DNA of 64,000 bases from Schmidtea nova (taxonomy: Eukaryota): NCBI GenBank assembly GCA_044892505.1, contig CM097883.1, forward strand, positions 157,976,001-158,040,000. Reading direction: 5' to 3'. Under the pieces are notes generated by a model that had not been told where the DNA came from, ran no database searches, and was given only the letters and a program-made list of their open reading frames with translations. Below are positions 358-60,920 of the stretch, piece by piece. The position numbers and the translations under genes are program-made. Each line of letters opens with the position of its first letter. Within the stretch, counting starts at the first letter, position 1.

Positions 358-963
358 GAATTTTGTGATTTAGCTGTTTTCGCGTATTAAATAATTTTTG
401 TTTTGTATTTATTTTATCGTAAAGTATATGAAATAGAGTGATTCATTAAAAATTTAAAATAATTTAAAGGAAAATATAGAATAAATTAACTATACATTAG
501 AATTAACAATAAGATTAACCTAAATCTAATAAACAATAGAAACATTAAAGAGATAATAAATTGTAATTGATTAAGGATTATTTGTTGATATTGTAAAGAA
601 GGGGGCTGAAAGAAAAGTTGAGAGTTGAAAGATAGTGTAAAGAAAAGGGGGCTAAAAGAAATAATTGAAATGAAAGATAATGGATGCGGATAGATTAAAG
701 TTAAAGCGTAAGTCCTTCTATCGGCAGCGAGACGAACCCGTGAACATAAATGGGGAGTAGTTTTAGCAATAGAGCTCACCTGCCCATCATTGTTCAAACA
801 CCTTGCACATTTCCAACTCGATTATTACAGGGAAATGATCGAGGGTGCTCGTGTGATATGTAAGCATTTTATGTGAGGTTTTGGATGGAGGAATCCCTAG
901 AGCGTTTAAGAATAATTATTAATTCATTTTGTATTTTTGTTTTAACCCAATCCGAAACCAACA
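1..963 (+). repeat. 5' LTR (3' part only; truncated by window start)
   Basis: Matches 22170-23132; ends ...CCAACA, 9 nt before the PBS. Confidence 0.95.
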
Positions 964-972
964 ACATAAATT

Positions 973-990
973 TGGGGGCTCAGCCGGGAT
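973..990 (+). promoter_or_regulatory. Primer-binding site, tRNA-Pro type
   Basis: TGGGGGCTCAGCCGGGAT matches 16/18 of the canonical Pro PBS TGGGGGCTCGTCCGGGAT, just after the LTR end. Confidence 0.85.
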
Positions 991-1127: not shown

Positions 1128-1429
1128 AAAACATAATTGATTTTTGTATTAAAGTGAAAACAATATCAACAGAGAATTTTTAAAGAAACAATGAGTGAAT
1201 AAATATAACAACAGACGATTAAAAATTGAGATTAAAATAAAATAAATAAACACAAATAAATATGTCGGGACGACAATTTGATGAAGCAGGGAGAGGTTTA
1301 ACATCAGAAAACGAAATGTACCACTACTTTTAAATAATACAAATCGAGCAAATAGAGAAACAAGATGTTGAAATTTTTATTTTTAACAAATAAAACAGCA
1401 AATATATTAATAATATCAACTATTTAGCA

Positions 1430-1891
1430 ATGAACGACAAATTAAAAGAAATAGAAGAATTCTTAAACACGGAAAACAAAACATACGATGAACTATGCGA
1501 AAAAATAAGTCGAATAAGAGAATCCGGATTCAAAGAACCCATGACACAAACTGAAGAGACAACAGAGCTGATAAAAATAATGGAAAGAGTAGACAAAATA
1601 GATATAACAACTAGATACAAGTGGTACCGAACGAGATTAGAAAATGCTGATGTAAACATAAAATGCAGACAGTTAGAACAACAATTAACTCCAACATACA
1701 ACAAGTGGACGATACAAGGAAATGAGACAGCTAAGAAATTTAAACTGTGTTACATATGTCGAGAAAGAGAGAATAAAATCATGTTTTTACCATGTGGACA
1801 TTTCCGGTTTTGTGGAATCTGTGCAGCCAATTGCGACAAATGCCCGATGTGCAATCTCGAAATAGACGAAAGAATTATTGTGTATTTATAA
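1430..1891 (+). CDS. RING-finger protein, IAP-type C-terminal C3HC4 RING, no BIR domain (153 aa)
   Basis: CYICRERENKIMFLPCGHFRFCGICAANCDKCPMC at the extreme C-terminus; intronless. Confidence 0.85.
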   Translation: MNDKLKEIEEFLNTENKTYDELCEKISRIRESGFKEPMTQTEETTELIKIMERVDKIDITTRYKWYRTRLENADVNIKCRQLEQQLTPTYNKWTIQGNETAKKFKLCYICRERENKIMFLPCGHFRFCGICAANCDKCPMCNLEIDERIIVYL

Positions 1892-2110: not shown

Positions 2111-2459
2111 ATAATGGCAATGACAGAAATCATAATAACAATTGATATTTATAAATAATTTTTGAGCTGCTCACGAGTAGTCCGTTAAGCACCCATTGGG
2201 AGGAACCAACCGATCAACTTACCCGAGATGTATAGAAAGGGGCCCATCGCGGAAATTGGAAAGCTTTTGTGATGTGACTGATCACCACATCTTGCATTAG
2301 TAGACCAATGCGATCTTTTTGTATATTTTGGTTGGGGTGAAAGGTAGGGACAATCTAATGAGGTTTAAGTGCGCGCAGAAAATATAAATAAAAAGAGAGA
2401 ACAGAAAACTGATCAGTAAGAAATAACGAGAATAAAAGTTAATATGATAACAAAGAATA

Positions 2460-3312
2460 ATAGCAACATGAGAATATGAACTCATGATTGTAGGCAACAT
2501 AAGAATTTGAACCTATGATTGCAGTGAATAATAGCAACATGAGAATATGAACTCATGATTGTAGGCAACATAAGAATTTGAACCTATGATTGCAGTGAAT
2601 AATAGCAACATGAGAATATGAACTCATGATTGTAGGCAACATAAGAATTTGAACCTATGATTGCAGTGAATAATAGCAACATGAGAATATGAACTCATGA
2701 TTGTAGGCAACATAAGAATTTGAACCTATGATTGCAGTGAATAATAGCAACATGAGAATATGAACTCATGATTGTAGGCAACATAAGAATTTGAACCTAT
2801 GATTGCAGTGAATAATAGCAACATGAGAATATGAACTCATGATTGTAGGCAACATAAGAATTTGAACCTATGATTGCAGTGAATAATAGCAACATGAGAA
2901 TATGAACTCATGATTGTAGGCAACATAAGAATTTGAACCTATGATTGCAGTGAATAATAGCAACATGAGAATATGAACTCATGATTGTAGGCAACATAAG
3001 AATTTGAACCTATGATTGCAGTGAATAATAGCAACATGAGAATATGAACTCATGATTGTAGGCAACATAAGAATTTGAACCTATGATTGCAGTGAATAAT
3101 AGCAACATGAGAATATGAACTCATGATTGTAGGCAACATAAGAATTTGAACCTATGATTGCAGTGAATAATAGCAACATGAGAATATGAACTCATGATTG
3201 TAGGCAACATAAGAATTTGAACCTATGATTGCAGTGAATAATAGTAACATGAGAATATGAACTCATGATTATAGGCAACATAAGGAATGTGAACCTGTGA
3301 TTGCGATTATGG
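2460..3312 (+). repeat. 71-bp tandem array: 11 identical units plus a degenerate 12th; shorter decaying subunits continue to ~3480
   Basis: tagcaacatgagaatatg recurs at 2461, 2532, 2603 ... 3171, then 3242 with substitutions. Confidence 0.95.
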
Positions 3313-4115
3313 ATAGCAACAGAAGGAATATGAACCTTTGATTGCATTGTGGATAACAACATAAGGAATATGAACCTATGATTGTAATTGTTAAAGACAA
3401 CGAAAGGAATATGAACCTAGAGTTGTATAAATTATCCGGATAAGCAACGAAAGGAATATGAACCTAGAGTTGTAGTCGTCGACGAAGTAAGAATAGTGAA
3501 TATTAGAGTTTGAATAATAAGAGTAAAGATGATTAAGAAAACTAGAGATACAGTATGCATACAAGTAGAAATAAGAATAGGAGAAATTAGAGTTGACCGT
3601 AAAAACCGGTAGAAATAGTGAGAATAGTGAGTAATGATGAGAAATTAGAGATGACCAATAGTGGGAATAATGAGTAACGATGATATAGTAAATAGTGATA
3701 AAATGATAATTGAGTCAGGAGAACTCAAGGGAATTAAAGCGTTGGAGCGACAAATTAAATTGGGAGACTGAGGGAAAAGTAATGAATTTATTTGATAACG
3801 ATAAATAATTATTACGACCATATAGATAATTGTTACCAGTGAATAGATAATTTAAATAGACTTAAATAAAGGGGAAACCGGGAATGGGGAAACAATGGAA
3901 ACCCAATAATGAGGAATAAAAGCGCAACGATAACAATGATGTATCGTTGAAGTGACTTTTTAATTTAGATATACGGAACAGAACAAGTCAAAACAACCAA
4001 CCAATCAATCAGAATACGATAACAGAGAAACAGAAAAATTGATAAATTAAAGAAAAGTAAACCGAGATCAAGAACAGTTAAAAACCAAGAAGTTAATAAT
4101 TCACAAAGAAATAAA

Positions 4116-7100
4116 TTGAGATCAAGAGCAGTTAGTGCTACAATCGAAAAAGTTGATAACTCCCAGAGAAGTAAATCGAAACAAAGAGCAACCAGTGTTA
4201 CAAAGAAAACAAATCCTAAAGGAAGTAAATCAAGAAGAGTAATAGTAGAAAAGTCAAAAGTCGAAAACAGTAAATTTGCTAAAACTAACGAAAGTGAAAC
4301 AGAAGAAAGTTTAAGTGAAACCTACGATAATTTTAATAATACAGAAGCATCAGATAACGAGTCAATAAACACAGAAGAAGTAGAAGCAGAAATTGATAAT
4401 AATTCAAACGAAACGAATAACGAGCATACTAGTGAAACAAGAGGAAACGAGAGTAAAACGACACAAGACAGCGGAATTGAAATGAACGAGCATAAAGAAG
4501 AAATCAAAGATAAATTTACTGGAGAACCATTCAATGGAGATGCCAGCAAGTTAGAAACGTTTTTAAAAGAATTTGGTATATTTGTAGAAGTATGTAAATG
4601 GAAACCAGAAACGATAAGGAGCAGAATTCAGTTATATTTAAAAGACAGTGCGTTAGATTTATATTTAGAAGCTAAAAATTCAGATGATCAACTCGATAAT
4701 TGGGAAAAGATAAAGAATTTTTTCCAGCAAACGTTTGGAATAAATAAAGTATTAAATGAAGCATTTACAGAATTTTCAATGAGGAAACAAAAAGTTAATG
4801 AATCAAATGCAGTATATGCAAGTGAATTAAAGAAATTGGCTAAATTGGCATTTAATCAAAATAGTCCAATGAGTCCAGAATTAATGGCAGCAATTTTTGT
4901 GGGGGGATTGAGAAGACCCGATATAAGAGCACAAGTTGGATGCCAAGGTTGTAAAACAATAGATGAAGCGTTGGAAATCGCTAACAGATTTGAGTTACAT
5001 ATGATCGGAAGTGAAGGAAGAATTTACCTAGCAATGGATACGACACAAAATGAACAAGCAATGAAGATAAACAATCATATCCCGAATTCACAACAATTAA
5101 ACCGACCACCACCTCAAAGGAGAAATGAAGGAAACAAAATACAAAATTACAGAAACCAAAATAATTATAGTACGCAAGGACAGACAAAGCAATGTCAAAC
5201 CTGTGGAAAGTTAGGACATTGGCAACAAGAATGTTTCGCGAATTTAAATTGTAAAAAGTGTGGAAGAAAAGGACATGCAGAAAATAGATGTTACCAAAGA
5301 TCATGTTATAACTGTGGACAATCAGGTCATATGGCGATGAACTGCCAACAACAAAACAACCAACAAAGGAATTGGTCGAACAACGGAAATCGACAAAATT
5401 ATACGAATCAACAGAGTAACGGAAACCGTCAGAATTTTGAAAATCAACAGAGTAATTATAACCAGAATAAAAGTACCACCAAGGAAATACATTTATTACA
5501 AGAAGTTCAAAGATTAACAGAATTAATAAACAATACACCGAGAGGAAATCAACAAACGAATCAACAACAAATGAATATGATGAGAAAAGTGGAAAGTGAA
5601 AATGAACGACTAAACCGAGAAAGTCAAGCACGACATGCTCAAGAATGGGCAAGAATACAAAGAGAAGACGAACAGAAACGACAAGAAAGAGAACGACAAC
5701 CACTGAGAATTAATATGATGAGAGCAGCGAATCAAACAAGAGATAACAAGGAAGATATTGAACCAGAAACAAATCAGATAAAACCAAATTTAGTAGATGA
5801 AGAAAACCAAAAAGAAATAGTACAAGAAAACGAAGAAGTTATGAAACAAAAAAGGATGTTGGTAGTCATGCCAAACGATCATGTATTTCAATTTGAATAT
5901 GATGAAAAAGAGGTAGTGGGAGTGTTAATTAATAAAATAAACAAGACGATTCCGGGAATGACGAAACTACCCCGAGAAGCATTTTTACAGACAGAAGACG
6001 AAGCAGCAATAAAATTGAAACCAACCGACATATGGAAAGATTTAGGAGTACCAATGAATAAAATGAAAGTCACAGTTATCCAAGAAATAGAAGAAAATAA
6101 CGATGAAGAGAAATCAAAACCAGTAACAAAAGTCAAAAGTAGAGCATTGAAGATATTTGAAGAGAGAATCAAACAGAGAAAAGCAATGGAGATAGAAAAA
6201 CGAAGAGGCCAAATAGAAGAATCAGAAAACAATGACAAAAAAGAAGAGATACCACCAAAAAATGTACCAGATAAAGTAGAACAGACAGCACATATAAATA
6301 TGTTAAGAAACTTAACTAGAGAATTTTCAGATGTAGAAAGTGACAGTGATGTCAGTAGTTTAGCAGGAGATATGCTAAAAGAACCAGAAAATGAAGACAA
6401 CAAGATAGAAGTAGCGAAGACGCCAGAGAATATACAAATAAAAGAAGATGAAATTCAGAAACTATTAGATAATGCGTTAGAAGTGATTTATAACGAGGAA
6501 TTTATTGAGAAGAAGCGATATCGAAAATTTATAAGAGCAGTGTTCCGAACGAACTATAAAGAACGGTTACAAAGTCGTGAAGTAGAGATACTATCAGGAT
6601 ACGTCGTCAAACTATTAGATGAACCACTCCATGAATATATAATTTTAATAGAAATAAACGAATGTTCACCAAGAATTTGGATCAAATCTCCATGCACGAA
6701 CGAAATTTATCGATGGGTAGAAGACAGATTAGGAAGTTCGTATAAAAACAAATTTATATATTCAGGAAATGAACTTGTAAGACGAGCAACGCATTTGGTA
6801 GAAACAGGCATATGGCCAGGAGAGATAACAACATTATCAATATGCGACAATAAGAAAGAGGAAAATTTACAAGAAATCGCAAAGGAAGCAAATATGTGTT
6901 TTGAGATGAGAATTAAACCTCAGTTAGTAGAAAGGAAAGAAAGAATTCTTAGAGAAAATTTAAATTCACTAATAGAACAAATTATTCAACAAATCGACAA
7001 GAATAGAGAAGAATTAACAAAAACTGAATATGAAAAATTAAAACAATGCATCGAAAATATACGAGATACCAGCCATACGAGACATTCGTCATACAAGACT

Positions 7101-10100
7101 TGGAAAGTGATCGCGAAAATGGGAAAAGCGATGTTTAAACGAGGGGAAATAGGAGATTTAAAAATCAAAGTGAAATTACCAAACGAAGACACAAAAGAAA
7201 TTGAAGTAATCGCGGATTGTACAATAGAAGAATTAGTTGATGTTATCAATGAAACTTTATTACAACGGGAAAAAGAAGACGAATTGGTAGACGATATCAT
7301 CATAAAATACAATGAACACGTACTAGGGGATCATGATGAGAGACGATTATATAAAATTGGTATATGGGATAATTACCAAACAATTCATGTTATCAGAATG
7401 GATGATACACCAAGAGAAACACCAAAAGACGAAAAAAGGAGACAAGAACGTCAAAGAGAAGCGATGCACAAACTAAGACAAATAATAGAAATTTATCGAA
7501 GATGGCAGATACAGCCAGAATGGGAAAATGTTTTAGGAGAATTAAACTTCAATGAACGCCGATTAACACCAGTAGAGAAACACTGGGATGTTAAAGAGAA
7601 ATGCTGGAAAGCAAAAGGAGGTATATATGAAGAAGAATTTAGACCAGAAATGGAAGACAAATATGAACCAGAAATTAGAAGAGTTTGTATGGTGACAAGA
7701 AAAGTCATGCCAACAGATTTGGATGGACCAGAAACCGCAGCAATATGGTTAGAAACGCAAAGACGAAAAGCCGACGAACTTATTGAATTACTAAAAGGAA
7801 ATGTACAAGGAAAAAGGCGAACGATCAAAGGATTAGCCGAATTCTTTGTAGCAGGCGGCGAAGATATAATCAGTTTAAGAAAAGTAGCCAAGGCAGTAAC
7901 AGAATATAAACGAGTTAACGAGTGGTGCCCAGAACAATTAGACAATGTAATCAAGAAATGGAGAAACCAAGAAAACTCCCAAGAACCACCGCAGAAAATA
8001 CATTTAAGGATAATATATCCAGATCGAGAAAAAGAAGAGCTTTGGGTAAGATTAACTGAAAAGATTCGAGATGTTAAAAAGAGATTAAAATACGAAACAC
8101 CATTTCATCTACAACATCAAGGACGATCATTGGAAAACGATATGGAAATTTGGATAACGCTAGCACAGTTAGATCTTGCAAATACGTTAACAGTAGACGC
8201 AATAGCAGGTCAACCATTAAAACTTAAAGAGAAAAGAGTAAGAGAAAGTGAAGATACTCAGAATCTAAGGAAGACGATGCAGATAAAACCAGGAACAAGC
8301 GCAAGGCAGTACGAAACAACATCAATTAAAACCCAAGAAAGAACTCGACCACAACCATACGATACAGAAGAAATCTTAACAGACAGTGATGACATGCTAG
8401 AAGAATTAGCAAAATTGACAAAAGAAAAAGGCAATAATATTTTCGAAAGAGTACAAGAGTTACCCACAACGTCACAAGCAATCAATACCCAAGATGAAGT
8501 TGAGCAAGAAATAGAAATAGAAGAAGTGAACGAAATCTCTGAAGAAGAAGCAAGAGGAGCAAATACAGAAAACGAACGATTTACACAAGAAATGGAAAAA
8601 TGGTGGGAACAGAGAAATAATGAACCAAGAGATGTTACAGAAGAAACTGGACGAGAAACCAGATTGATTGAAACAGGTACAACAATGGATAGACGACCTA
8701 GAGGTAGACCAAAGACAGATCCAGCCAACATAATCAACAAAACTAAAGAGGAAAGGAGACAAGAGAAATGGGAATTATGTTTAAAGAAACTCAACAAAAT
8801 AGCAGAAGCAAAAGACCAGGAAATAACGCAAAAATGTCAAGGTGAAGGATGGATATCAAAAGCACTAATGGAAATACTGGCGATAATTGATCCAGAATTG
8901 AAAAAATGGTGGAGAATAAACGAAATAAGCGACAAGGCTAAAGCATTACATAGCGCAATCGCACCAATCTTACCAGAACTGATAAAAGAAAAGGCAAAAT
9001 CAAGCCATTTAGATTGGCAAGGGACCACAACGTTGATAAAGAGGTTAACTGAAGATGCAGAAAATGATAATAAATATGTGATAGCAATTGCGTATACAAT
9101 TTATAACTTATTAACATTGAGTAGAGGTAATCCAAAATCCACAGCAATAGAGAAGCACATCAAAAATACAGCAAATATCATAGCAAAAGAAATAGAACCA
9201 TACGTCATAAGTAAAGGAGGATGGGAAACATTTGCTAAAACGAATCAAAGAAACAGTCAAGCAAAGAATATGAAAAAGAAATTTGAAGAAATTTTAGGAG
9301 AATTAGAAAAAGAAAAGTCAGGAACAGGAAGTGGAAAATCTTCACTAAACCTGAATTCAATCATAATGATGATATTAATATGGCTAATTAGCGTTGAAGG
9401 AGCAACGGCGTTCGAAGTATTTGATTGCGACCAGATGGCATTAGGAGAAAAATATTCATTAAGAGGAACCGAACAATGCAAAGATGCAACTCCAACAGAG
9501 CTAAAAGTACTACATAGGAAACAAATATATCACGTATATCAGGAAGCCGACTTAATAAAGACAACAGTTAATGAATGTAAAATATATAAAACAAGATTTG
9601 CTTTTTATTGTGGACATCGCCACTACTCTGCAATCGTATTGCCAGGAACGGAAAGAGAAGCGATAATGTTACAAGGAGAAGATTGCAATAAATTGTTCAA
9701 ACATGGAGAAGTCGAAACAAGAGATCGAATAAAGATAAGAGGAAAAGCTGGAGTAATACTACAACAAACATATTATGTAGCAGGAGCTATCACAGGAGGA
9801 GAAGGTTACTGTCAAGGAGCAACATATCCAAAATTTGGAGTACCAGCAACTAACATGGTAGTGATCGACACATATACGGTAGAATTAAAAGCGTATGAAG
9901 CATATTTTGACCCAGCAACAGGAGAAATGAAGACGTTATCAATGTGCAAAATTGAAGCCAGTACTTGTCAAACCGGTATGTCAACTTTAACATACAGAGC
10001 AAAAGCAAATGAATGCCAATTACAATTATTAAAGGAAGCAGAGTTCGACGAGGTACAAGGAAAAATCTTTCAGGAAGAAGATGATGATGAAGTAGCAAGA

Positions 10101-13100
10101 GGAAAACGTCTACAGGAGACAGTAAAAGGAGAGAAACCGTTCACAACTAAAGTACAAGAAAAAGAGGTGAGGATGAGAGAGACGCCAACAGTATTGGTTA
10201 CATCAAACGCAAATATAGGAATGAGGTTTGTAAAAGGAAAACCGGCATTAAAATGTGGTGTTTCTATGTTAGAAACAAATTATCCAGGTATTTATGTATC
10301 AAGACAAGCAGCACCGAATGCAAAACCTAAGATAGATACTACAGACATCAAATTACACGTATATTTAAATAACAAATTGGATTTTTTATTTCACAAAGGC
10401 CAAGCATCAATGGAGAAAATATACTACGATCTCATTAACAACGACTGTATATTGAACAGAGAAATATTAAAGACGAAACTAGCAGTAGCAATTACAAACC
10501 CGGATAGTGCGATGCCATTATTACCACTTAACGAAGGTCATTTTGGAAGAGTAGTTGGAGAAGTTATGTATGTATATATATGCCAAAAGACACAAGCAAA
10601 CCTAGCACCAACGACCAGAATACGACAAGGACAATGTACCAACGAATTGGAAATTGAATATAAAGGGAAAATAAGATATGTACAACCAGTGACAAGAATC
10701 ATTAACCCAGTTAGTTTTGAACCAAACCCTTTCAATTGCAGTAATGCATACGGACCATTATATCAGAAACCAGACGGGAATTGGGTCATGTTTCCGTCAA
10801 GATCAGAAGTACAACCACCTAGAGAATTTGAATTGATGCAACTTTCAAAAGGACGAAAATTTTCCAATATATATGTAAATAACGGAGGAATCTACAGTGC
10901 AAAAGATCTTGAAGCAGCACGACAAAATATATTATTCCCAGCTAGAAGAGAAGCAGTATTATCTAGCATTGTAACGATAACAGGAGGAACAAGTTACCAA
11001 GGAGGACCAAATTATGAATTATTACTGTCACCAGCACACTTTAAGAAAGCAACAGAAAATATGATGAAAGCAATGTGGGGACGATTTTTAATTTTCGGAC
11101 AAATGATGGCCGGAATACTAGGTGTAATTTTAATCATACAAATAATACGAGTGATAATCACACAAATGCTAGCATGTTTTGATATTTATAAAAGAGAAAA
11201 GAAAGTTAATTGGAAATTAATAGCAGGATTTTTACCATTTTTAGCAAAAACGATGGTGTTACATGGTCACTCAAAAGATATTCATAGAATAAAAAGATTG
11301 TTAAAAATACTGGCAAAAATGAAAGGAACAGATGAAGACGTGGGAAGAAAATTCAAAAAGATAATGACAGATGAACAAGCGAGATTACAATTAAAAAGCG
11401 AAAGAAAAGGATTATGGGAAAGAATAAGAGGAGATAAAACTCAAGATGATTCCAGTGATGACGATGATAACAATGACGACTGTGAAGGAGGGCAAAGGTA
11501 TAGAAACCAAGCACCGCAATATAGCGACAAGAATCCAACAGAAGCATGGAAATGTCACGCACCTCCACCAACAATGTACCAAGAACCATTACAGGTATCA
11601 GGACACAGAGCAATGCAAATGATGCCAAGGACAACTTTATATCCAATTATACCAGAAGATTATAAACTTAGACGATGTAGAAGTATGGATCCGCAAGACG
11701 ATTCACTCACAATTGCAGTCATGTCATCAAATACAGGACCAGTATTAACTACAACCATAGAAATAAATGGAAAAGAAATAGAAGCGATGATAGATACAGG
11801 AGCAAATATTTCGGCGATAGATATCAAATGGATACCGCAAGAACGAAGACAAGAAATCGAAAGAACAAATGTTCATGTAATAGCATGTAGTAAAGAGATA
11901 GTTGAAGTTGCAGGAAGATGGTGGGTGAAAATACGACACCAAAATAGAGAAATCGAAACCTATGTAGCAGTAATACCAGCTTTAAGTGTACCATGTATAA
12001 TCGGAACAGATTTAATGCCAACACTATTTAAAGAAATAATCATCGACCTTGGAACAATGAGATTAAAGGACAGAACAGGGAAAATATGTGCCATGAAAAC
12101 AAAAGTAATAAACTCGAAACAAATAATGATACCGGAAGAGAGAATCATGACGAGATCACAAACCATCAGAATAAATATGTTCAGAGCGGAAGAAATTAAC
12201 ACAACTAGTCAAGTAGACAGTGAGAAAATCGATGTTGACAAAGAAATCGTACGGAAAGCCAAAGAAATAAACGAAAGATGGGAAATCAGACGAGAAAATG
12301 ACGTATTATGGGATGTACGACAAATAATTAGTGATTACGCACGAGGATGCCCAACCAAACCAATTATAATAGAATTACTAAAGAAAATACCAGAGATACT
12401 CGTATTACAAGATACAGGAGGTGCAACTGCACTGCACAATGCCATAAGTTGGGGTAAAACAGAAAAGGTAAAAGAATTCTTGAAAATAGCAAAAGAAACG
12501 AATCAAAATCTAGACATTGTAAATCGAGAATTAGAAACGCCAATGATGACAGCAACACTAAGCTTAGCAGATAAAGAAATAGTAGATATGCTGATTAACG
12601 CAGAATTCAACTGGACAGCTCGAGATAGAAGAGGAAACACAGTTTTAAACCATGCAATAATGAGTGAAAATCAAATGATACTAAAACATATAACAACCAA
12701 CCTCACATGGGAAATCGATGAATTAATCAAAGGAGAAATTATGAAGGAAGCGATTCGGAAAGGAAACCCTAAAACAATATGGAAACTAATACAATGGAAA
12801 TGGCCGGATAATAAAACATGGGTATTGGATATAAACAAAGAATTTAGCGAAGGACAGAATGCACTATTGAGATACTTGTTAGAGTTTACGTGCGATCAGA
12901 GAACGATGTTAGCACTAATAAATAGAGAAAAAATAAATATTAGTAAAAACGAAGAGGAATATAAACTAGAAGTTGAAAAGAAAGCTTTATTCAGGAAAAT
13001 TTGGGTATGGTGTCAAAAACAAATACGCAAAGACATAAGCTACAAAAATCTAAATGATTTCCAAGAAAAGTATAAGATAATAATAAAGGAATACAAGAAG

Positions 13101-16100
13101 CTAGTGGAGATATTAAACGATCCAGAAAAATTTAATCAAGCAATAAATCAGAAAGAAGAAGAAAGTAAAAGGATACTCACACCATTATTCAATGCGAAGA
13201 TAGATTACCAAGAAAGATTGGATGCAATACACAAAAAAGCAAAGGAACTATTACCAGAATTCAAAGATACTAAATACGCCTTGGAAATACTTGGCGCGAT
13301 AGTAGAAAAAGTACACGCGTACGCGAAAGGAATATATAATGGAAGCGATATAATAATTATAAAAAGAGAGATGCCAGTTGCGTTTTTATTAACAAAAGAA
13401 AGAATAATGCCGATTCATAGAGCATTGAGAGCAGGAAAAGACAGTAAAGTAATCGAAATCGCAAGATTAATGCATCAATGTGGATGTGATATGAATATGA
13501 TAGACGAAAAAGGAGACACCCTCATGGTATACGCAGCAAGAGCAAAAACAAAAATCAAAGTATTAGAAGAATTATATAAAGCAGGCGCAGGATTAATCGG
13601 AAAAACTAGCAAAGACAACTCAATATTAGACGTGACATTATTAGGTCCAAACTGGGAAATGTTGAATTTCATTAAAACGATAACAAACCAGGAAGAAATA
13701 GATTATTTAACAGAAACCGTAAAAGGACCAAGCATATTGACAATGATGCAAAACATCAAATTGACAGAAGAAGTATTAAACTGGAAAATACCAAATACAA
13801 ATAAACCAGCATTTAAAGTTAACAAGTTTATGGAGAAAAATCGAAATTGGTGTATCCAAAGCGCACTAATAACTTATATATGGCCCGAAATTGTAGAAAT
13901 TTTTATGAGAAGAGAAGACCTGAGATTTACAAACAAGCCTAAAGAAACGGAAAAGGTAGTTAAATGGAAAGAATTGATGAAAACACACCTTCAAAGTTGG
14001 ATAAAAGCCAAGAAAGAAATTATACAGTATCAGTTAGACAAGAAAAAGATACCCGAAGATATAGAATTCCAGGAATTCGAAGCCAGTAACTTAACATCAC
14101 TATATTACGCAAAACTAATAGAAACAAGTAATGTCGAGGACGACATTTTTAACGGGCCAGGGAGAGATAATAATACTGACAAAGACGATGACGATGAAGA
14201 AAACAATGACGACGAGAGAAATAAAGACGATGATGATGATGAAAACAGTCACGGAAATCCAGATAACCACGAACAAACCAATAAAGAAGACGAGAATCAA
14301 GAGGGAAATACAAAGAACCACGAATCCAAAGAACAAAGAGAAGACAACCCTAAAAACAATCACGAAAAGAAAGGAACAAGTTACAGAAGAAATCCATTAT
14401 TCAGACCAGAAGTATTAATGTTCGCAATAATCATAACACTTATGGGACAATGTGAAGCAACGAAACAAGAGATATCAGTAGAAATGGAAGTACCAATACA
14501 AAAAGCATCAACACAAATAATGAATTCAAAGGAAATTGAACAAGTATGTTGGGTCAAAGAGAACGAAATTCTCGGAGATAACAACCTATTACGATGTATA
14601 ATCCCAAACCCCGAGCGAAAAACCATAATAATCGACGAAATGGATATGGAGACATGGTACAGAATATGTACTATCAGAAAACCCAAGGACGAAAAATCAC
14701 ACAAAATAGTTACATGCCAAGTATACAAGACACCCAAAGTTCGATACGAGTTCACCAATGGAATAGACCTTCCAGGACCATTTTATTTTAGAATAACAAG
14801 AACACCAGCATCAAGAAAAGTCTTACAACCACCAAGAACCAAGATAACAACACCAAGTATAAGGAATACAACGGATAAACCAGAACCAAAAAGACGAACG
14901 AAACAAACCACAAGAGTAATCTATAATTCCAAGTTGTTATGTATAGCACTTATTATGACAATACTGAAGCGATTGGAAGAAGGGATAGAAATGGATACAA
15001 TGACATTAATAGACATGGAAGAGACACGAATGACAAATCAAAAATGTTGGTTTAGAAACGATGAAAAATTAGAATTAAAGGAATCAAGAGAAATTCAAAA
15101 ATTGGAAGCGAGTAAAACGAACAAAGTAATCAAGATAATAAAGATAAAAACAGACAGAATTCATAAACTATGTTTATTGGAAAAAGAGAGAAACAAGAAA
15201 GGAATAACCAATTGTAAAACATTCCAAGCAGGGAAAATAATAACGTTTGCAAGAAAAATGGGGAAAAGAAACAAACAAAATTTCCAGAAATTAACCATAA
15301 CGTTAGAAATAACGGGAATAGAACAAAATGTAAACGGAGTATGCTGGAGAAAATACGAGAAAGAAACGAATAAACATAAATCATCACAATGTCAAACAAT
15401 CAGAGGAACAACTGCAGTGCAAATAAAAAGCTTAGAAAGAAATCAAACGTATGAAATATGCCTAGTAAAGGAAAATGATCAAATAACGAAAGAAGATTTA
15501 GAATGCAGAATATACAAAGCACCGAACAGAGTAAAAACCATTAAAGCAATACGAAAGAATAAAAGACAACAAAAACCGAAGCATACCACTACCGAAAGTC
15601 AAACAGAACCAGAGAGAAAAAACTCAGCAACACTTATACTTTGGAAATTGGATGACAAAACAGTAGAAATATGTTGGACAATGATCAAGAAATATGAAGA
15701 AAGACAACCACAACAATGCGAAAAGATGAATAAAGAAGAGGAGATCAGAATTCAGAACCTACAATTGGACAAACAATACGAAATATGCGCAATAGAAAAG
15801 GCAGATAAATTCGGAAACCAGCAAGAAAAATGTGGAAACTACTATACACCGACAAATACAACGATCAAAGGAAGAATCAAGAAACTAACTTTCGGAGAAT
15901 TGAATCAAACAACGAAACAAATGGAAAACGAGGAAACAATAATAGATTCTTATGCACAATGGAAACCAGAAAAAGTAATCCAGGAAGTCAAAAGGAAACA
16001 ACAAGAACGACAACAATTGGAACTCAAATTGAAAGGACAATATGGACCAATGATCAACCAAAGCAAATTCACCCAAATTAATATTAACAAGCAAAGAAGA

Positions 16101-16349
16101 GAACTAATTGGAGTAGGAATACTGGCAGTATGCGTACCAGTAATAATAATACTATCAATAATATGGCTATGGGACATAATAAAAAAGAAACCAACCAGAC
16201 AATGGCCAGATATAAAGATTATGAATTGTAAAATCAAGATACCAGAAGAAGTAAAGAAAGAATTCCAAAGAAGAACCAAAGGCAAAGAATTTTGGAAGCA
16301 GATCGAAGACGAGGAGCGACACGATGAAAAGGCAGTGATGATAGTATAG
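4116..16349 (+). CDS. 4077-aa polyprotein: Gag - Ubl x4 - AT-hook - Bcl-2-like - class III envelope glycoprotein - aspartic protease - ankyrin repeats - FN3-like membrane protein
   Basis: Single uninterrupted ORF; the frame is open from 4023, track start is TTG 4116, first ATG is 4482. Domain motifs are listed in the sub-features. Confidence 0.92.
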   Translation: MRSRAVSATIEKVDNSQRSKSKQRATSVTKKTNPKGSKSRRVIVEKSKVENSKFAKTNESETEESLSETYDNFNNTEASDNESINTEEVEAEIDNNSNETNNEHTSETRGNESKTTQDSGIEMNEHKEEIKDKFTGEPFNGDASKLETFLKEFGIFVEVCKWKPETIRSRIQLYLKDSALDLYLEAKNSDDQLDNWEKIKNFFQQTFGINKVLNEAFTEFSMRKQKVNESNAVYASELKKLAKLAFNQNSPMSPELMAAIFVGGLRRPDIRAQVGCQGCKTIDEALEIANRFELHMIGSEGRIYLAMDTTQNEQAMKINNHIPNSQQLNRPPPQRRNEGNKIQNYRNQNNYSTQGQTKQCQTCGKLGHWQQECFANLNCKKCGRKGHAENRCYQRSCYNCGQSGHMAMNCQQQNNQQRNWSNNGNRQNYTNQQSNGNRQNFENQQSNYNQNKSTTKEIHLLQEVQRLTELINNTPRGNQQTNQQQMNMMRKVESENERLNRESQARHAQEWARIQREDEQKRQERERQPLRINMMRAANQTRDNKEDIEPETNQIKPNLVDEENQKEIVQENEEVMKQKRMLVVMPNDHVFQFEYDEKEVVGVLINKINKTIPGMTKLPREAFLQTEDEAAIKLKPTDIWKDLGVPMNKMKVTVIQEIEENNDEEKSKPVTKVKSRALKIFEERIKQRKAMEIEKRRGQIEESENNDKKEEIPPKNVPDKVEQTAHINMLRNLTREFSDVESDSDVSSLAGDMLKEPENEDNKIEVAKTPENIQIKEDEIQKLLDNALEVIYNEEFIEKKRYRKFIRAVFRTNYKERLQSREVEILSGYVVKLLDEPLHEYIILIEINECSPRIWIKSPCTNEIYRWVEDRLGSSYKNKFIYSGNELVRRATHLVETGIWPGEITTLSICDNKKEENLQEIAKEANMCFEMRIKPQLVERKERILRENLNSLIEQIIQQIDKNREELTKTEYEKLKQCIENIRDTSHTRHSSYKTWKVIAKMGKAMFKRGEIGDLKIKVKLPNEDTKEIEVIADCTIEELVDVINETLLQREKEDELVDDIIIKYNEHVLGDHDERRLYKIGIWDNYQTIHVIRMDDTPRETPKDEKRRQERQREAMHKLRQIIEIYRRWQIQPEWENVLGELNFNERRLTPVEKHWDVKEKCWKAKGGIYEEEFRPEMEDKYEPEIRRVCMVTRKVMPTDLDGPETAAIWLETQRRKADELIELLKGNVQGKRRTIKGLAEFFVAGGEDIISLRKVAKAVTEYKRVNEWCPEQLDNVIKKWRNQENSQEPPQKIHLRIIYPDREKEELWVRLTEKIRDVKKRLKYETPFHLQHQGRSLENDMEIWITLAQLDLANTLTVDAIAGQPLKLKEKRVRESEDTQNLRKTMQIKPGTSARQYETTSIKTQERTRPQPYDTEEILTDSDDMLEELAKLTKEKGNNIFERVQELPTTSQAINTQDEVEQEIEIEEVNEISEEEARGANTENERFTQEMEKWWEQRNNEPRDVTEETGRETRLIETGTTMDRRPRGRPKTDPANIINKTKEERRQEKWELCLKKLNKIAEAKDQEITQKCQGEGWISKALMEILAIIDPELKKWWRINEISDKAKALHSAIAPILPELIKEKAKSSHLDWQGTTTLIKRLTEDAENDNKYVIAIAYTIYNLLTLSRGNPKSTAIEKHIKNTANIIAKEIEPYVISKGGWETFAKTNQRNSQAKNMKKKFEEILGELEKEKSGTGSGKSSLNLNSIIMMILIWLISVEGATAFEVFDCDQMALGEKYSLRGTEQCKDATPTELKVLHRKQIYHVYQEADLIKTTVNECKIYKTRFAFYCGHRHYSAIVLPGTEREAIMLQGEDCNKLFKHGEVETRDRIKIRGKAGVILQQTYYVAGAITGGEGYCQGATYPKFGVPATNMVVIDTYTVELKAYEAYFDPATGEMKTLSMCKIEASTCQTGMSTLTYRAKANECQLQLLKEAEFDEVQGKIFQEEDDDEVARGKRLQETVKGEKPFTTKVQEKEVRMRETPTVLVTSNANIGMRFVKGKPALKCGVSMLETNYPGIYVSRQAAPNAKPKIDTTDIKLHVYLNNKLDFLFHKGQASMEKIYYDLINNDCILNREILKTKLAVAITNPDSAMPLLPLNEGHFGRVVGEVMYVYICQKTQANLAPTTRIRQGQCTNELEIEYKGKIRYVQPVTRIINPVSFEPNPFNCSNAYGPLYQKPDGNWVMFPSRSEVQPPREFELMQLSKGRKFSNIYVNNGGIYSAKDLEAARQNILFPARREAVLSSIVTITGGTSYQGGPNYELLLSPAHFKKATENMMKAMWGRFLIFGQMMAGILGVILIIQIIRVIITQMLACFDIYKREKKVNWKLIAGFLPFLAKTMVLHGHSKDIHRIKRLLKILAKMKGTDEDVGRKFKKIMTDEQARLQLKSERKGLWERIRGDKTQDDSSDDDDNNDDCEGGQRYRNQAPQYSDKNPTEAWKCHAPPPTMYQEPLQVSGHRAMQMMPRTTLYPIIPEDYKLRRCRSMDPQDDSLTIAVMSSNTGPVLTTTIEINGKEIEAMIDTGANISAIDIKWIPQERRQEIERTNVHVIACSKEIVEVAGRWWVKIRHQNREIETYVAVIPALSVPCIIGTDLMPTLFKEIIIDLGTMRLKDRTGKICAMKTKVINSKQIMIPEERIMTRSQTIRINMFRAEEINTTSQVDSEKIDVDKEIVRKAKEINERWEIRRENDVLWDVRQIISDYARGCPTKPIIIELLKKIPEILVLQDTGGATALHNAISWGKTEKVKEFLKIAKETNQNLDIVNRELETPMMTATLSLADKEIVDMLINAEFNWTARDRRGNTVLNHAIMSENQMILKHITTNLTWEIDELIKGEIMKEAIRKGNPKTIWKLIQWKWPDNKTWVLDINKEFSEGQNALLRYLLEFTCDQRTMLALINREKINISKNEEEYKLEVEKKALFRKIWVWCQKQIRKDISYKNLNDFQEKYKIIIKEYKKLVEILNDPEKFNQAINQKEEESKRILTPLFNAKIDYQERLDAIHKKAKELLPEFKDTKYALEILGAIVEKVHAYAKGIYNGSDIIIIKREMPVAFLLTKERIMPIHRALRAGKDSKVIEIARLMHQCGCDMNMIDEKGDTLMVYAARAKTKIKVLEELYKAGAGLIGKTSKDNSILDVTLLGPNWEMLNFIKTITNQEEIDYLTETVKGPSILTMMQNIKLTEEVLNWKIPNTNKPAFKVNKFMEKNRNWCIQSALITYIWPEIVEIFMRREDLRFTNKPKETEKVVKWKELMKTHLQSWIKAKKEIIQYQLDKKKIPEDIEFQEFEASNLTSLYYAKLIETSNVEDDIFNGPGRDNNTDKDDDDEENNDDERNKDDDDDENSHGNPDNHEQTNKEDENQEGNTKNHESKEQREDNPKNNHEKKGTSYRRNPLFRPEVLMFAIIITLMGQCEATKQEISVEMEVPIQKASTQIMNSKEIEQVCWVKENEILGDNNLLRCIIPNPERKTIIIDEMDMETWYRICTIRKPKDEKSHKIVTCQVYKTPKVRYEFTNGIDLPGPFYFRITRTPASRKVLQPPRTKITTPSIRNTTDKPEPKRRTKQTTRVIYNSKLLCIALIMTILKRLEEGIEMDTMTLIDMEETRMTNQKCWFRNDEKLELKESREIQKLEASKTNKVIKIIKIKTDRIHKLCLLEKERNKKGITNCKTFQAGKIITFARKMGKRNKQNFQKLTITLEITGIEQNVNGVCWRKYEKETNKHKSSQCQTIRGTTAVQIKSLERNQTYEICLVKENDQITKEDLECRIYKAPNRVKTIKAIRKNKRQQKPKHTTTESQTEPERKNSATLILWKLDDKTVEICWTMIKKYEERQPQQCEKMNKEEEIRIQNLQLDKQYEICAIEKADKFGNQQEKCGNYYTPTNTTIKGRIKKLTFGELNQTTKQMENEETIIDSYAQWKPEKVIQEVKRKQQERQQLELKLKGQYGPMINQSKFTQININKQRRELIGVGILAVCVPVIIILSIIWLWDIIKKKPTRQWPDIKIMNCKIKIPEEVKKEFQRRTKGKEFWKQIEDEERHDEKAVMIV
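4482..5345 (+). other. Polyprotein domain: Gag capsid-like region plus three CX2CX4HX4C zinc knuckles (5193-5345)
   Basis: PFNGDASKLETFLKEF...W..IKNFFQQTF capsid-like motif; CQTCGKLGHWQQEC, CKKCGRKGHAENRC, CYNCGQSGHMAMNC. Confidence 0.9.
5850..8212 (+). other. Polyprotein domains: up to four ubiquitin-like (beta-grasp) domains at ~5850-6090, 6636-6850, 7158-7403 and 7995-8212
   Basis: The pattern LKIKVKLPNEDTKEIEVIADCTIEELVDVI...IIIKYNEHVL...LYKIGIWDNYQTIHVI resembles ubiquitin; also KFIYSGNELVRRATHLVETGI and FHLQHQGRSLEND. The first copy is the weakest. Confidence 0.6.
8860..9240 (+). other. Polyprotein domain: divergent Bcl-2-like domain
   Basis: EIEPYVISKGGWETF fits BH2 (Bcl-2 LHTWIQDNGGWDAF), preceded by a degenerate BH1-like RLTEDAENDNKYVIAIAY with correct helix spacing. 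Confidence 0.65.
9351..11261 (+). other. Polyprotein domain: signal peptide plus chuvirus-type class III fusion glycoprotein with furin site and TM anchor
   Basis: Signal NSIIMMILIWLISVEGA; FEVFDC...EQC...ECKIYKTRFAFYCGHRHYS; RGKR at 10098-10109; YLNNKLDFLF...DCILNREILKTKLA...GHFGRVVGEVMYVYIC; TM FLIFGQMMAGILGVILIIQII. Confidence 0.85.
11745..12060 (+). other. Polyprotein domain: retropepsin-type aspartic protease
   Basis: IEINGKEIEAMIDTGANISAI (DTG at 11793) ... CIIGTDLM. Confidence 0.92.
12400..13680 (+). other. Polyprotein domains: two ankyrin-repeat clusters (~12400-12790 and ~13400-13680)
   Basis: DTGGATALHNAISWG, RELETPMMTA, DRRGNTVLNHAI; MPIHRALRAG, DEKGDTLMVYAARA. Confidence 0.85.
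14412..16349 (+). other. Polyprotein C-terminal membrane protein: internal signal sequence, four Cys-conserved FN3-like repeats, TM helix (16104-16172) and short tail
   Basis: Repeat pattern CW-x(n)-C-x(n)-I..L...(Y)EIC-x(n)-C..(Y)..P occurs four times; VLMFAIIITLMGQCEA signal-like segment; LIGVGILAVCVPVIIILSIIWLW TM. Confidence 0.6.
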
Positions 16350-16471
16350 AGGGTGGGATATGACTGTAAATAATATTGTAAATTACAAAGCATTACCGTA
16401 TATAGTATGGGTATTAGTATTATAGAGTATATAAAAAGAGAAAAGAGAAAAATAATAATGTATTTTAGAAA

Positions 16472-16807: not shown

Positions 16808-16905
16808 TCAAATTGTAGCGGAAAATTGTAGATATGTAAAAATAAAACTCTAGAAAAATCAAAAAAACAAAGAACAAATCAATGTATGTATATATTATTG
16901 TAGAA

Positions 16906-18261
16906 ATGGATAAAGAGGAACGAGCAGTCGAGATTTTGAGAGCAGCAAACAGAAATTGGAACAAGAGATTTGTATGTGGATATTGTAATAATTTATTACG
17001 GAAACCAAAGCAAACCGCCTGTGGATGTAGATTATGCACTAGATGTGTACAAATGTTAGAGTTAAAAGGAATAACAGAATGTCCAGAATGTAAAGAAGGA
17101 CAAATAGTATTAGACGAAACAAGACCAGATAGAGCAACTCAGAGAGAAATCATGAGCATATTAATTGAATGTATAAATCCACCGTGCATATGGCAAGGAC
17201 AAATCAGCGAAATTGAAAATCATATAGAAAATTGTGAAGAAAAGAGAAGCGAATGTGAAAAGTGTAAAGAAACGATAATTTTAAAAGACAAAGAGAAACA
17301 CAGAGATGAATGCAAAGAGGAAGAAATCGCATGTGAATATTGCGAAATTCGAGAAACAAGGAGAAAAATTGAAGAAGAGCACATCAATATAAAAGAAGAG
17401 AGAATATGCGAACAGTATGTAGGAGTGTGCCCAAACAAATGTGAAATTACCGAAGAAGTGAAATTACGAGAACATTGGAAAAAGTGTACAGAAATACCAA
17501 GAGAATGTCCTTACAACAGATATGGATGCAAGGAAAAGAAGTCTCAACAAAATATGAAACAACATTTAGAAACCGAAGCAATCAATCATATGGAAATGAC
17601 AGACAGAAATATTCAGAAATTAGAAAAAGAAGTGGAATCTCATAAAATAATGATGAACCTATTATTAGAAACGAGAGAACAGTTTGAATTAACCCGAGGA
17701 AAGATGGAAAAGAAAATAATAGCCATCAAAGAATTAGCAAAAGGAATGAAAGTGCAATATAACAAGTTAATACAAGAAATTGATGAGAAAAAAGATTTAC
17801 CAATAGCACCTTATGTATGGAAAATAACGGATTTTCGAAATAAATTGGAAGATGCACGAAGCTTCAAGAAAACTGCGGTAATAAGCCCACCATTTTACTT
17901 ATGGAAAAACGGGGCTAAAGTGAGATTGAAAGTATATCCAAACGGAGATGGGAAAAGTATGGGAAAACACCTATCAATAATTTTTGCGTTTTGCAAAGGA
18001 GAATATGACGATTTAATCGATTGGCCTATAGGAGTAGGAGTAATGATAAAAATCAGGGGTTTAAACGAAACCATAGAAAAGAGATTCACGACAGAAAAAG
18101 GAGCAGTTACGAGTAACAGACCAACAGAAGAATGTGGATTAGCAAGTGGAGAACCACACTTTGTATTACAAAGCAAGATATGGGGATTATTGTATGAGGA
18201 CACCTTATACATAGAAATGGAAAGGAACGAGAAGGCAGATAGAAAAGGATGGTTGGCGTAG
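16906..18261 (+). CDS. Full-length TRAF-family protein (RING - TRAF zinc fingers - coiled coil - MATH), intronless; track ORF starts 16882, likely ATG 16906
   Basis: RING CGYCNNLL...CGCRLCTRC...CPEC; several C..C...H...C fingers; MATH YVWKITDF...SPPFY...LKVYPNGDG...HLSI...GEYDDLIDWP. Confidence 0.92.
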   Translation: MDKEERAVEILRAANRNWNKRFVCGYCNNLLRKPKQTACGCRLCTRCVQMLELKGITECPECKEGQIVLDETRPDRATQREIMSILIECINPPCIWQGQISEIENHIENCEEKRSECEKCKETIILKDKEKHRDECKEEEIACEYCEIRETRRKIEEEHINIKEERICEQYVGVCPNKCEITEEVKLREHWKKCTEIPRECPYNRYGCKEKKSQQNMKQHLETEAINHMEMTDRNIQKLEKEVESHKIMMNLLLETREQFELTRGKMEKKIIAIKELAKGMKVQYNKLIQEIDEKKDLPIAPYVWKITDFRNKLEDARSFKKTAVISPPFYLWKNGAKVRLKVYPNGDGKSMGKHLSIIFAFCKGEYDDLIDWPIGVGVMIKIRGLNETIEKRFTTEKGAVTSNRPTEECGLASGEPHFVLQSKIWGLLYEDTLYIEMERNEKADRKGWLA

Positions 18262-18366
18262 CAAGAGAAAATGATCGTGTAAATAAACTGTACAAAACAA
18301 TATAAAACGATAAATAAACAAAAATAATAAAAGTAGTTTGATTGAAAATATTTGTAATTATAGAAA

Positions 18367-19470
18367 ATGGGAAACGTCGAAATCAGTTTACAAGAAGTTA
18401 CCGCACATCAAGATGAAGTTATTTGTGAGCATTTAGAACAAATTGAAAGTTGGATCCACGCATATTACCACAAACAAAAAGAAGTAGAAAGACAAGCCGA
18501 ACAAATAACAGAAGCCAAAAGATTAAAGCGATTAAGTCAAGATAAAATAGACGAATTATATGAATTATTGGAGAAACAAAAAGAATATTATAAAAAGATG
18601 ATGAAAGAACGACGAGAAGAAAGAGAGCGAGAACGAACAGAAATGGAACGGAAAATGTACTCCATTACCGAGCAAGCAAGATATTGGAAAAAAGAAGCGA
18701 AAGAATCTTATACGAAAGCAAGAGAAATAATCGAAAGAACGGCGTACAGCGATGATTGGAAATTATTTGAAGAAATCGATAAATTAAAAGAGGAATTAGA
18801 ACAGAAAACCTATCAGGAAATATCGAGCAAAAAATGGAATAAAAAAAGACAACAATTCATCAGAGAGCAAGCAGGAAAAATTAAACAACTTATGCACCAG
18901 ATTGAAAGATCGGAAAGAGAATTATATTTCAGTAAACAACAATCAGATGCAAACCTCAGAGCAGGGATGCAGAAAGAGGAAGATATGAAGCGCGATATTA
19001 ATGGTTATCAAGGAGTAATCACTCAAAAGAAGATAGAATTAAAGAAAACTAAAGAAAGATTAGAAGAAGCAAAACAAAGCTATGAAGAAAATTTATTAAA
19101 ATTAAAAGAAGCAAAACAAAGCTATGAGGAAAATTTAGTAAATTTAACCAAAGAAAATGAAGAGTTGAAACAAAAATTGATACAAAAATTAACACCACCA
19201 AAAGAGATAGATATCACCAAAGCAGTAATAAAAATGATGGAAGAGGAAGAGAAAAACAATAAAATAACAGAATTAGAAAAACAGATCGAAGCGTTAACAG
19301 AACAATCAAATTATTTAGAATACCTGTTAGACGAAGAAATTCAATTGTCACACTTCTATCGAGATGAAGTAACAATGTGGAGAAACACGATAGTATGGTT
19401 ACCACTCCCTACGAATCAAGTGGAACCTCAAGATGAAGGTTTTCACGAACCCAATGAGTCGTTAGTTTAA
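18367..19470 (+). CDS. 367-aa long coiled-coil protein of unknown function
   Basis: E/K-rich heptads, internal 11-aa duplication EAKQSYEENL; TTATAG|AAAATG context. Confidence 0.7.
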   Translation: MGNVEISLQEVTAHQDEVICEHLEQIESWIHAYYHKQKEVERQAEQITEAKRLKRLSQDKIDELYELLEKQKEYYKKMMKERREERERERTEMERKMYSITEQARYWKKEAKESYTKAREIIERTAYSDDWKLFEEIDKLKEELEQKTYQEISSKKWNKKRQQFIREQAGKIKQLMHQIERSERELYFSKQQSDANLRAGMQKEEDMKRDINGYQGVITQKKIELKKTKERLEEAKQSYEENLLKLKEAKQSYEENLVNLTKENEELKQKLIQKLTPPKEIDITKAVIKMMEEEEKNNKITELEKQIEALTEQSNYLEYLLDEEIQLSHFYRDEVTMWRNTIVWLPLPTNQVEPQDEGFHEPNESLV

Positions 19471-19544
19471 AGAGAAGCGAAAATTCTTTGTAAATATCTG
19501 TAACATAACAATGTCAAACTGTATTGACAAATTTGTAAAGTGAA

Positions 19545-20108
19545 ATGAAGAAGCTCGCAATACTGATAATCCTAAACGTAATCGAAATCACCCAACAAAG
19601 AGAAGACCGTCCGATATCAAAAGAAAACCTACAAGTCTTACCCGATAAAATCTATAAAGAAATAGATGATCTATTAAAAGAAGCAACTAAAGAAATTTCT
19701 CAAATTCAATTGTCAACAGCACCTAACCCAGTATCAACGCAACAAACCCTGTGCAAAATCAATAACAAATTAGAGAAGATTCGAAAAACCCTGAAAGAAA
19801 GTAAAGAAACTATAAAGAATTTACATCAAGCAGAAATTCAATACCAAGAAAGATGGATCGTTGCGATTATAATCGTATTAACAATTAGTACAACAACCAG
19901 CGCAATTACCATTCTCATCGCAGTATATAGAATAAAGATCCTAAAACAAAAACAATCGATCATCAATCAAACAACAGCATACGATGACAATGCCCGAAGA
20001 CAAATGAGAAATCAGTTCAACAGAATACGAACCCAATACGAGTTACCAGCAATTCCACAGAACCAGTCCAATCCAGTGCGAGTTATGAACTATTTGTATA
20101 AACCATAA
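19545..20108 (+). CDS. 187-aa predicted type I membrane protein
   Basis: Signal MKKLAILIILNVIEIT; TM WIVAIIIVLTISTTTSAITILIAVY; tail containing YELP. Confidence 0.7.
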   Translation: MKKLAILIILNVIEITQQREDRPISKENLQVLPDKIYKEIDDLLKEATKEISQIQLSTAPNPVSTQQTLCKINNKLEKIRKTLKESKETIKNLHQAEIQYQERWIVAIIIVLTISTTTSAITILIAVYRIKILKQKQSIINQTTAYDDNARRQMRNQFNRIRTQYELPAIPQNQSNPVRVMNYLYKP

Positions 20109-60903: not shown

Positions 60904-60920
60904 ATCATCCATAGATATAA

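Follow-up and report, generated by a model that had tools for sequence, protein, structure and literature searches.

Giant LTR elements of the Burro type, found in planarians, encode polyproteins that run through Gag, ubiquitin-like, Bcl-2, Env, PR, dUTPase, RT, RH, IN and ankyrin domains, and their in-frame Env in the gag/pol interval was called the first case of its kind (PMC6431247). GAG-ENV-POL errantiviruses with an HSV/gB-type Env are also reported from Nematoda, Bryozoa and Platyhelminthes in the covered passages of a survey that also cites Sacco 2022 (PMC13524379). The Gag-Env-PR order is already published, and the headline of the initial annotation, which presented an envelope glycoprotein fused in frame between Gag and protease as unusual, is not new. 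The mouse IAP 1delta1 form carries an in-frame internal deletion, is non-autonomous and exceeds its parent in new insertions, and its fused ORF is cis-acting, according to the covered part of PMC6466679. Chuvirus-type glycoproteins are carried by the Anakin BEL/Pao elements of mosquitoes, many copies of which are described as defective (PMC7642597, passages covered). Further related literature, likewise covered in part, comprises PMC8532177, PMC8662619 and PMC11410931, the last of which mentions Burro once.

Here we describe an open reading frame that very probably encodes the only polyprotein of a young, Burro-like element of the Ty3/gypsy group, which has lost pol through an in-frame deletion of 3,021 bp and is likely copied in trans. 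The term Burro-like is assigned from the described features of Burro elements, not from sequence or tree placement with Burro1-4. Judged by the element family, the host would be a planarian.

Anatomy of the element

The window, the whole stretch of 64,000 nucleotides analysed, contains a complete LTR element except for its first part. At 25,005 bp the element exceeds the >20 kb threshold, and it is flanked by a 4-bp target duplication (TTTG). Features whose coordinates are written with two dots are on the forward (+) strand. The two LTRs, each of 2,836 bp with TG...CA termini, are 99.82% identical; the 5' LTR begins about 1.87 kb upstream of the window, so that its 3' part lies at 1..966, and the 3' LTR is located at 20297..23132. 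The primer-binding site (973..990) is a perfect 18-nt complement of the 3' end plus CCA of the host tRNA-Pro(TGG), and starts 6 nt from the LTR end. Two 70-bp direct repeats (1000-1139) adjoin it, each resembling part of the primer site. The tRNA-Pro(TGG) genes themselves (L133, L134) lie in a tandem array with a 308-bp period, with 899 motif matches genome-wide. At the integrated right end (23124-23132), here and in other copies, the element ends with one or the other of two CA dinucleotides, whose positions differ by 3 nt. An ORF of 197 codons is found within the LTR (21933-22526), with 249 codons in another copy and no convincing Pfam match. A hAT-type transposase remnant (DUF4371, 23133-24060) directly adjoins the end of the 3' LTR, and the element may have inserted into it.

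Several accessory ORFs surround the polyprotein gene. Upstream are an ORF encoding a C3HC4 RING finger (1394..1891; zf-C3HC4_3, Pfam E 1.2e-11) and, within the 5' leader, an array of 71-bp tandem repeats (2443..3310). No BIR domain was matched in the ORFs scanned, which cover the window part of the element. Downstream are a TRAF-like ORF with a TRAF zinc finger and a MATH domain (16846..18261; MATH_2 E 2.4e-20), a charged, coiled-coil-like ORF with no Pfam match (18364..19470), whose length of 368 codons is identical across six copies of the same subfamily, and a small ORF (19539..20108) judged by eye to have a signal-like N-terminus and one hydrophobic segment. A further coiled-coil-like ORF of 112 codons (16469-16807) is situated in the interval from the polyprotein to the TRAF ORF. 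The remainder of the window harbours other broken elements (36303-40137, 40681-41706, 49354-51875, 58303-60673 and 60850-64000), the types of which are a gag-PR-RT-IN LTR element, a mariner transposase, hAT remnants and a second gag-PR-RT element.

The polyprotein and its domain order

The polyprotein ORF (4023..16349) comprises 4,108 codons from stop to stop. It had been annotated from position 4116, which is in the same frame but is a TTG at codon 32; the frame opens at 4023 and its first ATG is at 4482. The 153 open codons before this ATG (4023-4481) are found here and in a sister subfamily (dN/dS 0.43), and they might reflect a non-ATG start or a spliced leader. This sister subfamily, which serves as the reference for all dN/dS values below, is largely full-length and shares about 76% nucleotide and 86% glycoprotein identity with the subfamily of the window copy.

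The succession of Gag, signal-like segment, glycoprotein, TM, DTG protease, second signal-like segment and TM in a single ORF was confirmed by Pfam searches and hydropathy. In full, Gag is followed by a Bcl-2-like part, the first signal-like segment, the glycoprotein with its TM, the protease, the ankyrins, the second signal-like segment, four FN3-like repeats and a final TM. A Gag capsid domain followed by three CCHC knuckles (4482..5345; Retrotrans_gag E 1.8e-5; knuckles at aa 391-441) begins at the first ATG. The Bcl-2-like helical domain (8745..9317) is a weak assignment, the matches being solely Bcl-xL chains with a best E of 0.7, and a Pfam search of this region gave no match. Its dN/dS is 0.06, and its GGW motif is presumably BH2. 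The assignments of glycoprotein (9411..11072; Monjiviricetes_fusion E 1.3e-70) and retropepsin protease (11730..12098; RVP E 2.6e-8, DTGA at aa 2591) both hold. Behind the protease lie the junction at which 3,021 bp with pol are missing in frame (12105..12135) and an ankyrin-repeat region (12195..14102; Ank_2 E 2e-10).

That the reading frame is a product of chimeric assembly, which the initial annotation had named as grounds for rejecting it, has a practically negligible probability. Fifteen of the 51 best-scoring loci of the same subfamily, a set biased towards intact copies, share an unbroken frame of 4,108-4,140 codons, and every copy tested has its own flanks and a target duplication. Contigs from sequencing runs (four runs of one study) cover 30 of 30 bins of the ORF, with none spanning it whole. 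Furthermore, the search for other Gag-G-PR fusions was successful. The unrelated records P0001-P0003 unite glycoprotein, protease, RT, RNase H and integrase on a single chain, and the order Gag, G, PR, pol is common to them and the subfamily. Two side observations were made among the distant relatives. Three or four protease-like DTG/DSG domains surround pol in P0001, P0002 and P0005, and P0008, a glycoprotein-PR-RT-RH-IN polyprotein filed under a bacterial metagenome-assembled genome, is probably eukaryotic contamination.

A class III fusion glycoprotein

The structure of the glycoprotein was predicted with AlphaFold2 from an alignment of 106 sequences (pLDDT 87.6), and the model is gB-like with a long central helix (315-362). 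All Foldseek matches listed are herpesvirus gB, the best being HSV-1 gB (E 3.9e-14, TM about 0.4), and a profile of the glycoprotein matched gB with E 0.004. The glycoprotein is, as modelled, a class III fusogen of the herpes gB (chuvirus-G) type, for which fusion activity is predicted. Among the 150 best relatives listed, many proteins stand alone, with a length of about 650 aa, and one of these relatives bears the name of a chuvirus glycoprotein.

The proposal that furin takes part in processing did not stand. The motif RGKR (aa 2026) sits in a variable loop of the glycoprotein. In the sister subfamily it is replaced by RGKI, and nine of nine distant relatives lack an equivalent at that position; furin cleavage is unsupported because RGKR is variable and because the protein is of the modelled class III.

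Loss of pol

The window copy is a non-autonomous derivative with an in-frame pol deletion of 3,021 bp, which the initial annotation missed. Copies 96-97% identical to it hold 3,021 additional bases in the protease/ankyrin interval, and these encode RT, RNase H and integrase; the dUTPase-like label for part of the deleted block is taken from PMC6431247. No RT, RNase H or integrase was found between the LTRs of the window copy in a six-frame tblastn with a natural pol query. The same search excluded a pol hidden in another frame.

Twenty-six copies spanning the ORF, drawn from the best matches, which favours intact ones, and with one of 27 left out as its 3' end was not found, comprise 21 pol-deleted copies, of which 15 are unbroken, 2 have a single stop and 4 are frameshifted, and 5 full-length copies, 2 of them unbroken. 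One junction is shared by 19 of the 26, and an 18-bp longer variant of it is present in two more. Two older copies (L129-L132, about 91% identical) have lost pol independently, through a deletion of about 2.97 kb whose junction is also in frame. This second deletion likewise ends just before an INML motif. Adjoining one pol-deleted copy, broken ORFs were seen by eye that resemble another ankyrin-bearing element (L006:989-8201).

Four forms of the subfamily

The subfamily occurs in four forms, full-length, pol-deleted, env-deleted and doubly deleted, and each has copies with young LTRs and copies with unbroken frames. Exact matches to the junctions numbered 43 for the pol deletion, 19 for the intact left pol border and 23 for the env deletion, and reversed-pattern controls gave 0. 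The 19 intact-border matches consist of 10 env-deleted copies, 6 full-length copies (one of them seen only in part), 2 copies with the older, independent pol deletion and 1 member of another subfamily.

The env deletion is an in-frame loss of about 5.39 kb that extends from aa ~749 to ~2543. The block absent from env-deleted relatives, at 6254..11650 in the window, contains a ubiquitin-like spacer, the Bcl-2-like part, the first signal, the glycoprotein, TM1 and a tail; the Bcl-2-like part, signal 1, glycoprotein and TM1 are taken jointly. At least two types of env-deletion junction exist, located at different microhomologies, and such joints are present in contigs of all four sequencing runs of the one study. 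Six of ten env-deleted copies are unbroken. Ten of the 43 pol-deleted matches are doubly deleted, with the env junction about 480 bp upstream, and half of these ten are unbroken with frames of 2,322-2,345 codons. The other 33 lack an env junction, a few of them having different upstream losses. In-frame deletions have arisen more than once.

Among the copies tested, the two LTRs share 99.8-100% identity in 4/4 pol-deleted, 3/3 full-length, 3/3 doubly deleted and 3/4 env-deleted cases, with 4-bp duplications. The near-identical LTR pairs and the 4-bp duplications in all classes show that each form was mobilised as such, and recently.

In the sister subfamily, 28 of the 63 copies listed have frames of at least 5,095 codons. 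No pol-deleted form was found among the two of these 63 copies checked for their shorter frames (4,130 and 4,170 codons), which align without gaps to a full-length copy over the stretch compared. Four related elements in tandem, about 33 kb apart and including one frame of 5,649 codons, were observed at G000:C1:590852849-590953166 and belong to a further subfamily.

Sequence exchange, selection and a proposed mode of copying

Pol-deleted and pol-containing copies show no fixed differences in any of ten segments. Linkage was examined with 413 SNPs in 25 copies, these being the ones among 35 that cover all segments; mean r2 is 0.26 for pairs less than 50 bp apart and 0.07 at 0.5-1 kb, compared with 0.04 in permuted data, and linkage nears background within a few hundred bases. 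Both length types of the env junction are found together with both pol states. Four gametes were found in 45% of SNP pairs less than 50 bp apart, and since they are common at such short range, recurrent mutation adds to the signal of recombination.

Strong coding constraint is evident in all the folded domains. In 17 in-frame pol-deleted copies (of 21, the 4 frameshifted ones being left out), pN/pS of shared variants is 0.00-0.16 in folded domains and 0.28 in the nucleocapsid, and dN/dS against the sister subfamily is 0.02-0.25 across the folded domains. Glycoprotein variants private to pol-deleted copies are few among the shared ones (1 N, 6 S), and for singletons in these copies pN/pS is 0.19 (17 N, 24 S). 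The full-length rows of this comparison, which include L129 and L131, two of the older pol-deleted loci, are left out. Because the copies recombine, low pN/pS may come from the pol-containing copies, and the constraint is not assignable to the pol-deleted lineage alone.

We suggest that pol-containing relatives would supply RT, RNase H and integrase in trans. RNAs of the different forms would be packaged together, so that pol-less genomes are reverse-transcribed, and template switching by RT among the co-packaged RNAs would shuffle the forms. By analogy with mouse IAP 1delta1, and in view of the open frames in all four forms, Gag or the polyprotein may act in cis and so keep the frame open; such a requirement would account for the observation that in-frame deletions alone amplified. 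Env, on the other hand, is dispensable in cis, because doubly deleted copies have spread.

This last point bears on whether Env is used at all. The deleted forms could be mere passengers of full-length elements, either of their own subfamily or of the sister, with the Env of the pol-deleted copies idle and refreshed through recombination. This speculation is supported by the spread of doubly deleted copies with neither Env nor pol (10 loci), by the fact that most variants of pol-deleted copies are shared with pol-containing ones, and by the sister subfamily, which has the same primer site and polypurine-tract region and many long-framed copies. However, Env genes reside mostly in pol-deleted genomes (up to 33 of 43, compared with 6 full-length copies among 19 matches), and the low pN/pS of the singleton glycoprotein variants also speaks against an idle Env. 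We consider the passenger explanation quite possible, if short of probable.

A more elaborate arrangement would be a two-part, retrovirus-like split, in which genomes with env but no pol and genomes with pol but no env provide for one another in particles that hold both, crossovers within the 480 bp regenerate the rarer full-length and doubly deleted forms, and the second signal-FN3-TM protein is a second envelope or attachment protein. We regard this as unlikely. If true, it would represent a natural intermediate in the segmentation of an LTR-element genome.

Mosaics and doubly deleted forms might also have arisen without co-packaging, by ectopic recombination or gene conversion between integrated copies, which the high copy number and 96-98% identity would permit. 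Against this, LTRs are 99.8-100% identical within each tested copy but only 85-92% alike between copies. This contrast places the origin of the diversity before or during the last reverse transcription and not after insertion, making ectopic exchange decidedly improbable.

The glycoprotein and the FN3-like protein could instead serve or defend the host, for example through receptor blocking or cell fusion, with the pol-deleted copies under host selection. The apoptosis- and ubiquitin-related cargo (RING, TRAF, Bcl-2-like) would be in line with such a role, and a host benefit of Burro1 is reported second-hand in the covered part of PMC13465017. The copies are, however, dozens of young, dispersed insertions and not a single old locus, and they shuffle freely with pol-containing copies; a host function is therefore very improbable. 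Copying in trans of a young, pol-deleted element remains our preferred explanation.

Predicted membrane topology and processing

Signal peptides and TMs were predicted from Kyte-Doolittle hydropathy and conservation. The first internal signal sequence (9345..9410, aa 1775-1796) has a predicted cleavage site after A-T-A and is conserved in relatives, and the glycoprotein is followed by the predicted TM1 (11091..11162, aa 2357-2380). A second predicted signal (14397..14459, aa 3459-3479) would be cleaved after C-E-A, and a predicted TM2 (16107..16184, aa 4029-4054) lies near the C terminus. Both cleavage predictions derive from hydropathy together with small residues at positions -3/-1. The glycoprotein lies between signal-like and TM segments here, in the sister subfamily and in most of nine distant relatives, which supports the membrane-threaded polyprotein of the initial annotation. 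Of the flavivirus/alphavirus-like processing likewise proposed there, internal signal peptidase sites are predicted, whereas the furin site of the glycoprotein is not conserved.

In the arrangement we propose, Gag would remain cytosolic and signal 1 would direct the glycoprotein to the ER lumen. TM1 would bring the chain back, so that the protease, the ankyrins and, in the parent, pol would be cytosolic. Signal 2 would then export the FN3-like ectodomain, to be anchored by TM2. The two membrane proteins would be released by signal peptidase, and the element protease would cleave at repeated sites of the type [IV]-x-M-[ML]. The aspartic protease is intact, with a dN/dS of 0.02. Motifs such as INMM, INML, VCMV and IAVM are found repeatedly where domains meet, and one such motif directly follows the end point of each pol deletion; from sequence we infer that these are candidate protease sites.

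The env deletion drops one signal and one TM jointly and the pol deletion only cytosolic sequence, so both preserve the predicted topology and thereby support it. Additional hydrophobic stretches at aa ~2398-2414 and 3633-3650 could alter the topology if membrane-spanning. The latter (14919-14972), in the interval from FN3-like repeat 1 to 2, is conserved and signal-like, and is possibly a third signal or a TM. The 1:1 ratio of Gag to Env proposed earlier would apply only to each translated genome and only if unspliced; copies of the same subfamily that lack env would yield Gag but no Env.

The ectodomain of the second membrane protein contains four repeats marked by Cys and Trp (14490..15857), in which C, W, I, C and C are invariant in all eight repeats compared. 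We take their C/W motif to be that of FN3, and the repeats are likely fibronectin type III according to three weak tests. Among these, a low-confidence model of a single repeat gave Z 7.1 and rmsd 2.4 over 73 aligned residues, and an atlas search gave 0.91 with low recognition. In Pfam the best result was 0.11, in one of the eight repeats. The single-sequence fold of the C-terminal ectodomain has a mean pLDDT of 40, with just one repeat usable. A profile of the repeats had no match among 29 long relatives. A hydrophobic pair after integrase is present in P0001, P0002 and P0008 (3/9 distant relatives), also in P0003, and in weaker form in P0014.

Comparison with known systems

Like Burro/GYPSM1 (PMC6431247), the element is a giant LTR element with MATH/TRAF cargo, and its polyprotein combines Gag and three CCHC knuckles with a ubiquitin-like part, a putative Bcl-2-like part, an Env that precedes PR in frame, and ankyrins. 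Unlike Burro, the window copy is without RT-RH-IN, its TRAF/MATH domains are encoded by a separate downstream ORF, and its upstream RING ORF has no BIR match. Env is placed in class III by our model, whereas PMC6431247 ties Burro Env to gypsy Env, to baculovirus, retrovirus and paramyxovirus fusion proteins and to mononegaviruses. The text of that paper, figure aside, mentions neither the second signal-FN3-TM protein nor the four deletion forms.

The elements of PMC13524379 resemble the present one in having Env after gag and before pol, a gB-type fold and a furin site that is not always conserved, as given in the covered passages. That survey kept intact elements, and the same passages do not mention pol- or env-deleted derivatives; the word 'fibronectin' has 0 occurrences in its main text, supplements being outside the scope. 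Anakin shares the chuvirus-type glycoprotein on an LTR element, but has a BEL/Pao backbone, and a giant polyprotein with apoptosis cargo is not described in the covered passages of PMC7642597. The literature texts searched gave no description of Burro forms that reciprocally lack env and pol, a scope outside which lie figures, supplements, Grohme 2018, Lee 2026 and Sacco 2022.

As in the covered account of IAP 1delta1, an identical in-frame junction is found at many independent insertions. IAP 1delta1 is, however, without env, whereas here Env is retained by the non-autonomous form, which coexists and recombines with a reciprocal form that contains pol but not env.

What is added here is a pol-less copy and a recombining subfamily of four forms with a second membrane protein. 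The subfamily is a natural dissection of a giant polyprotein, in which the Env block and the pol block are dispensable and Gag, protease, ankyrins and the second membrane protein are kept by all four forms. Its in-frame deletions probe the predicted topology and the requirements in cis, with no need for engineering, and the structure model puts the Env of a Burro-like element in class III. Furthermore, it offers a young and countable system for asking if Env is still used by env-bearing invertebrate retroelements, and how defective genomes share parts.
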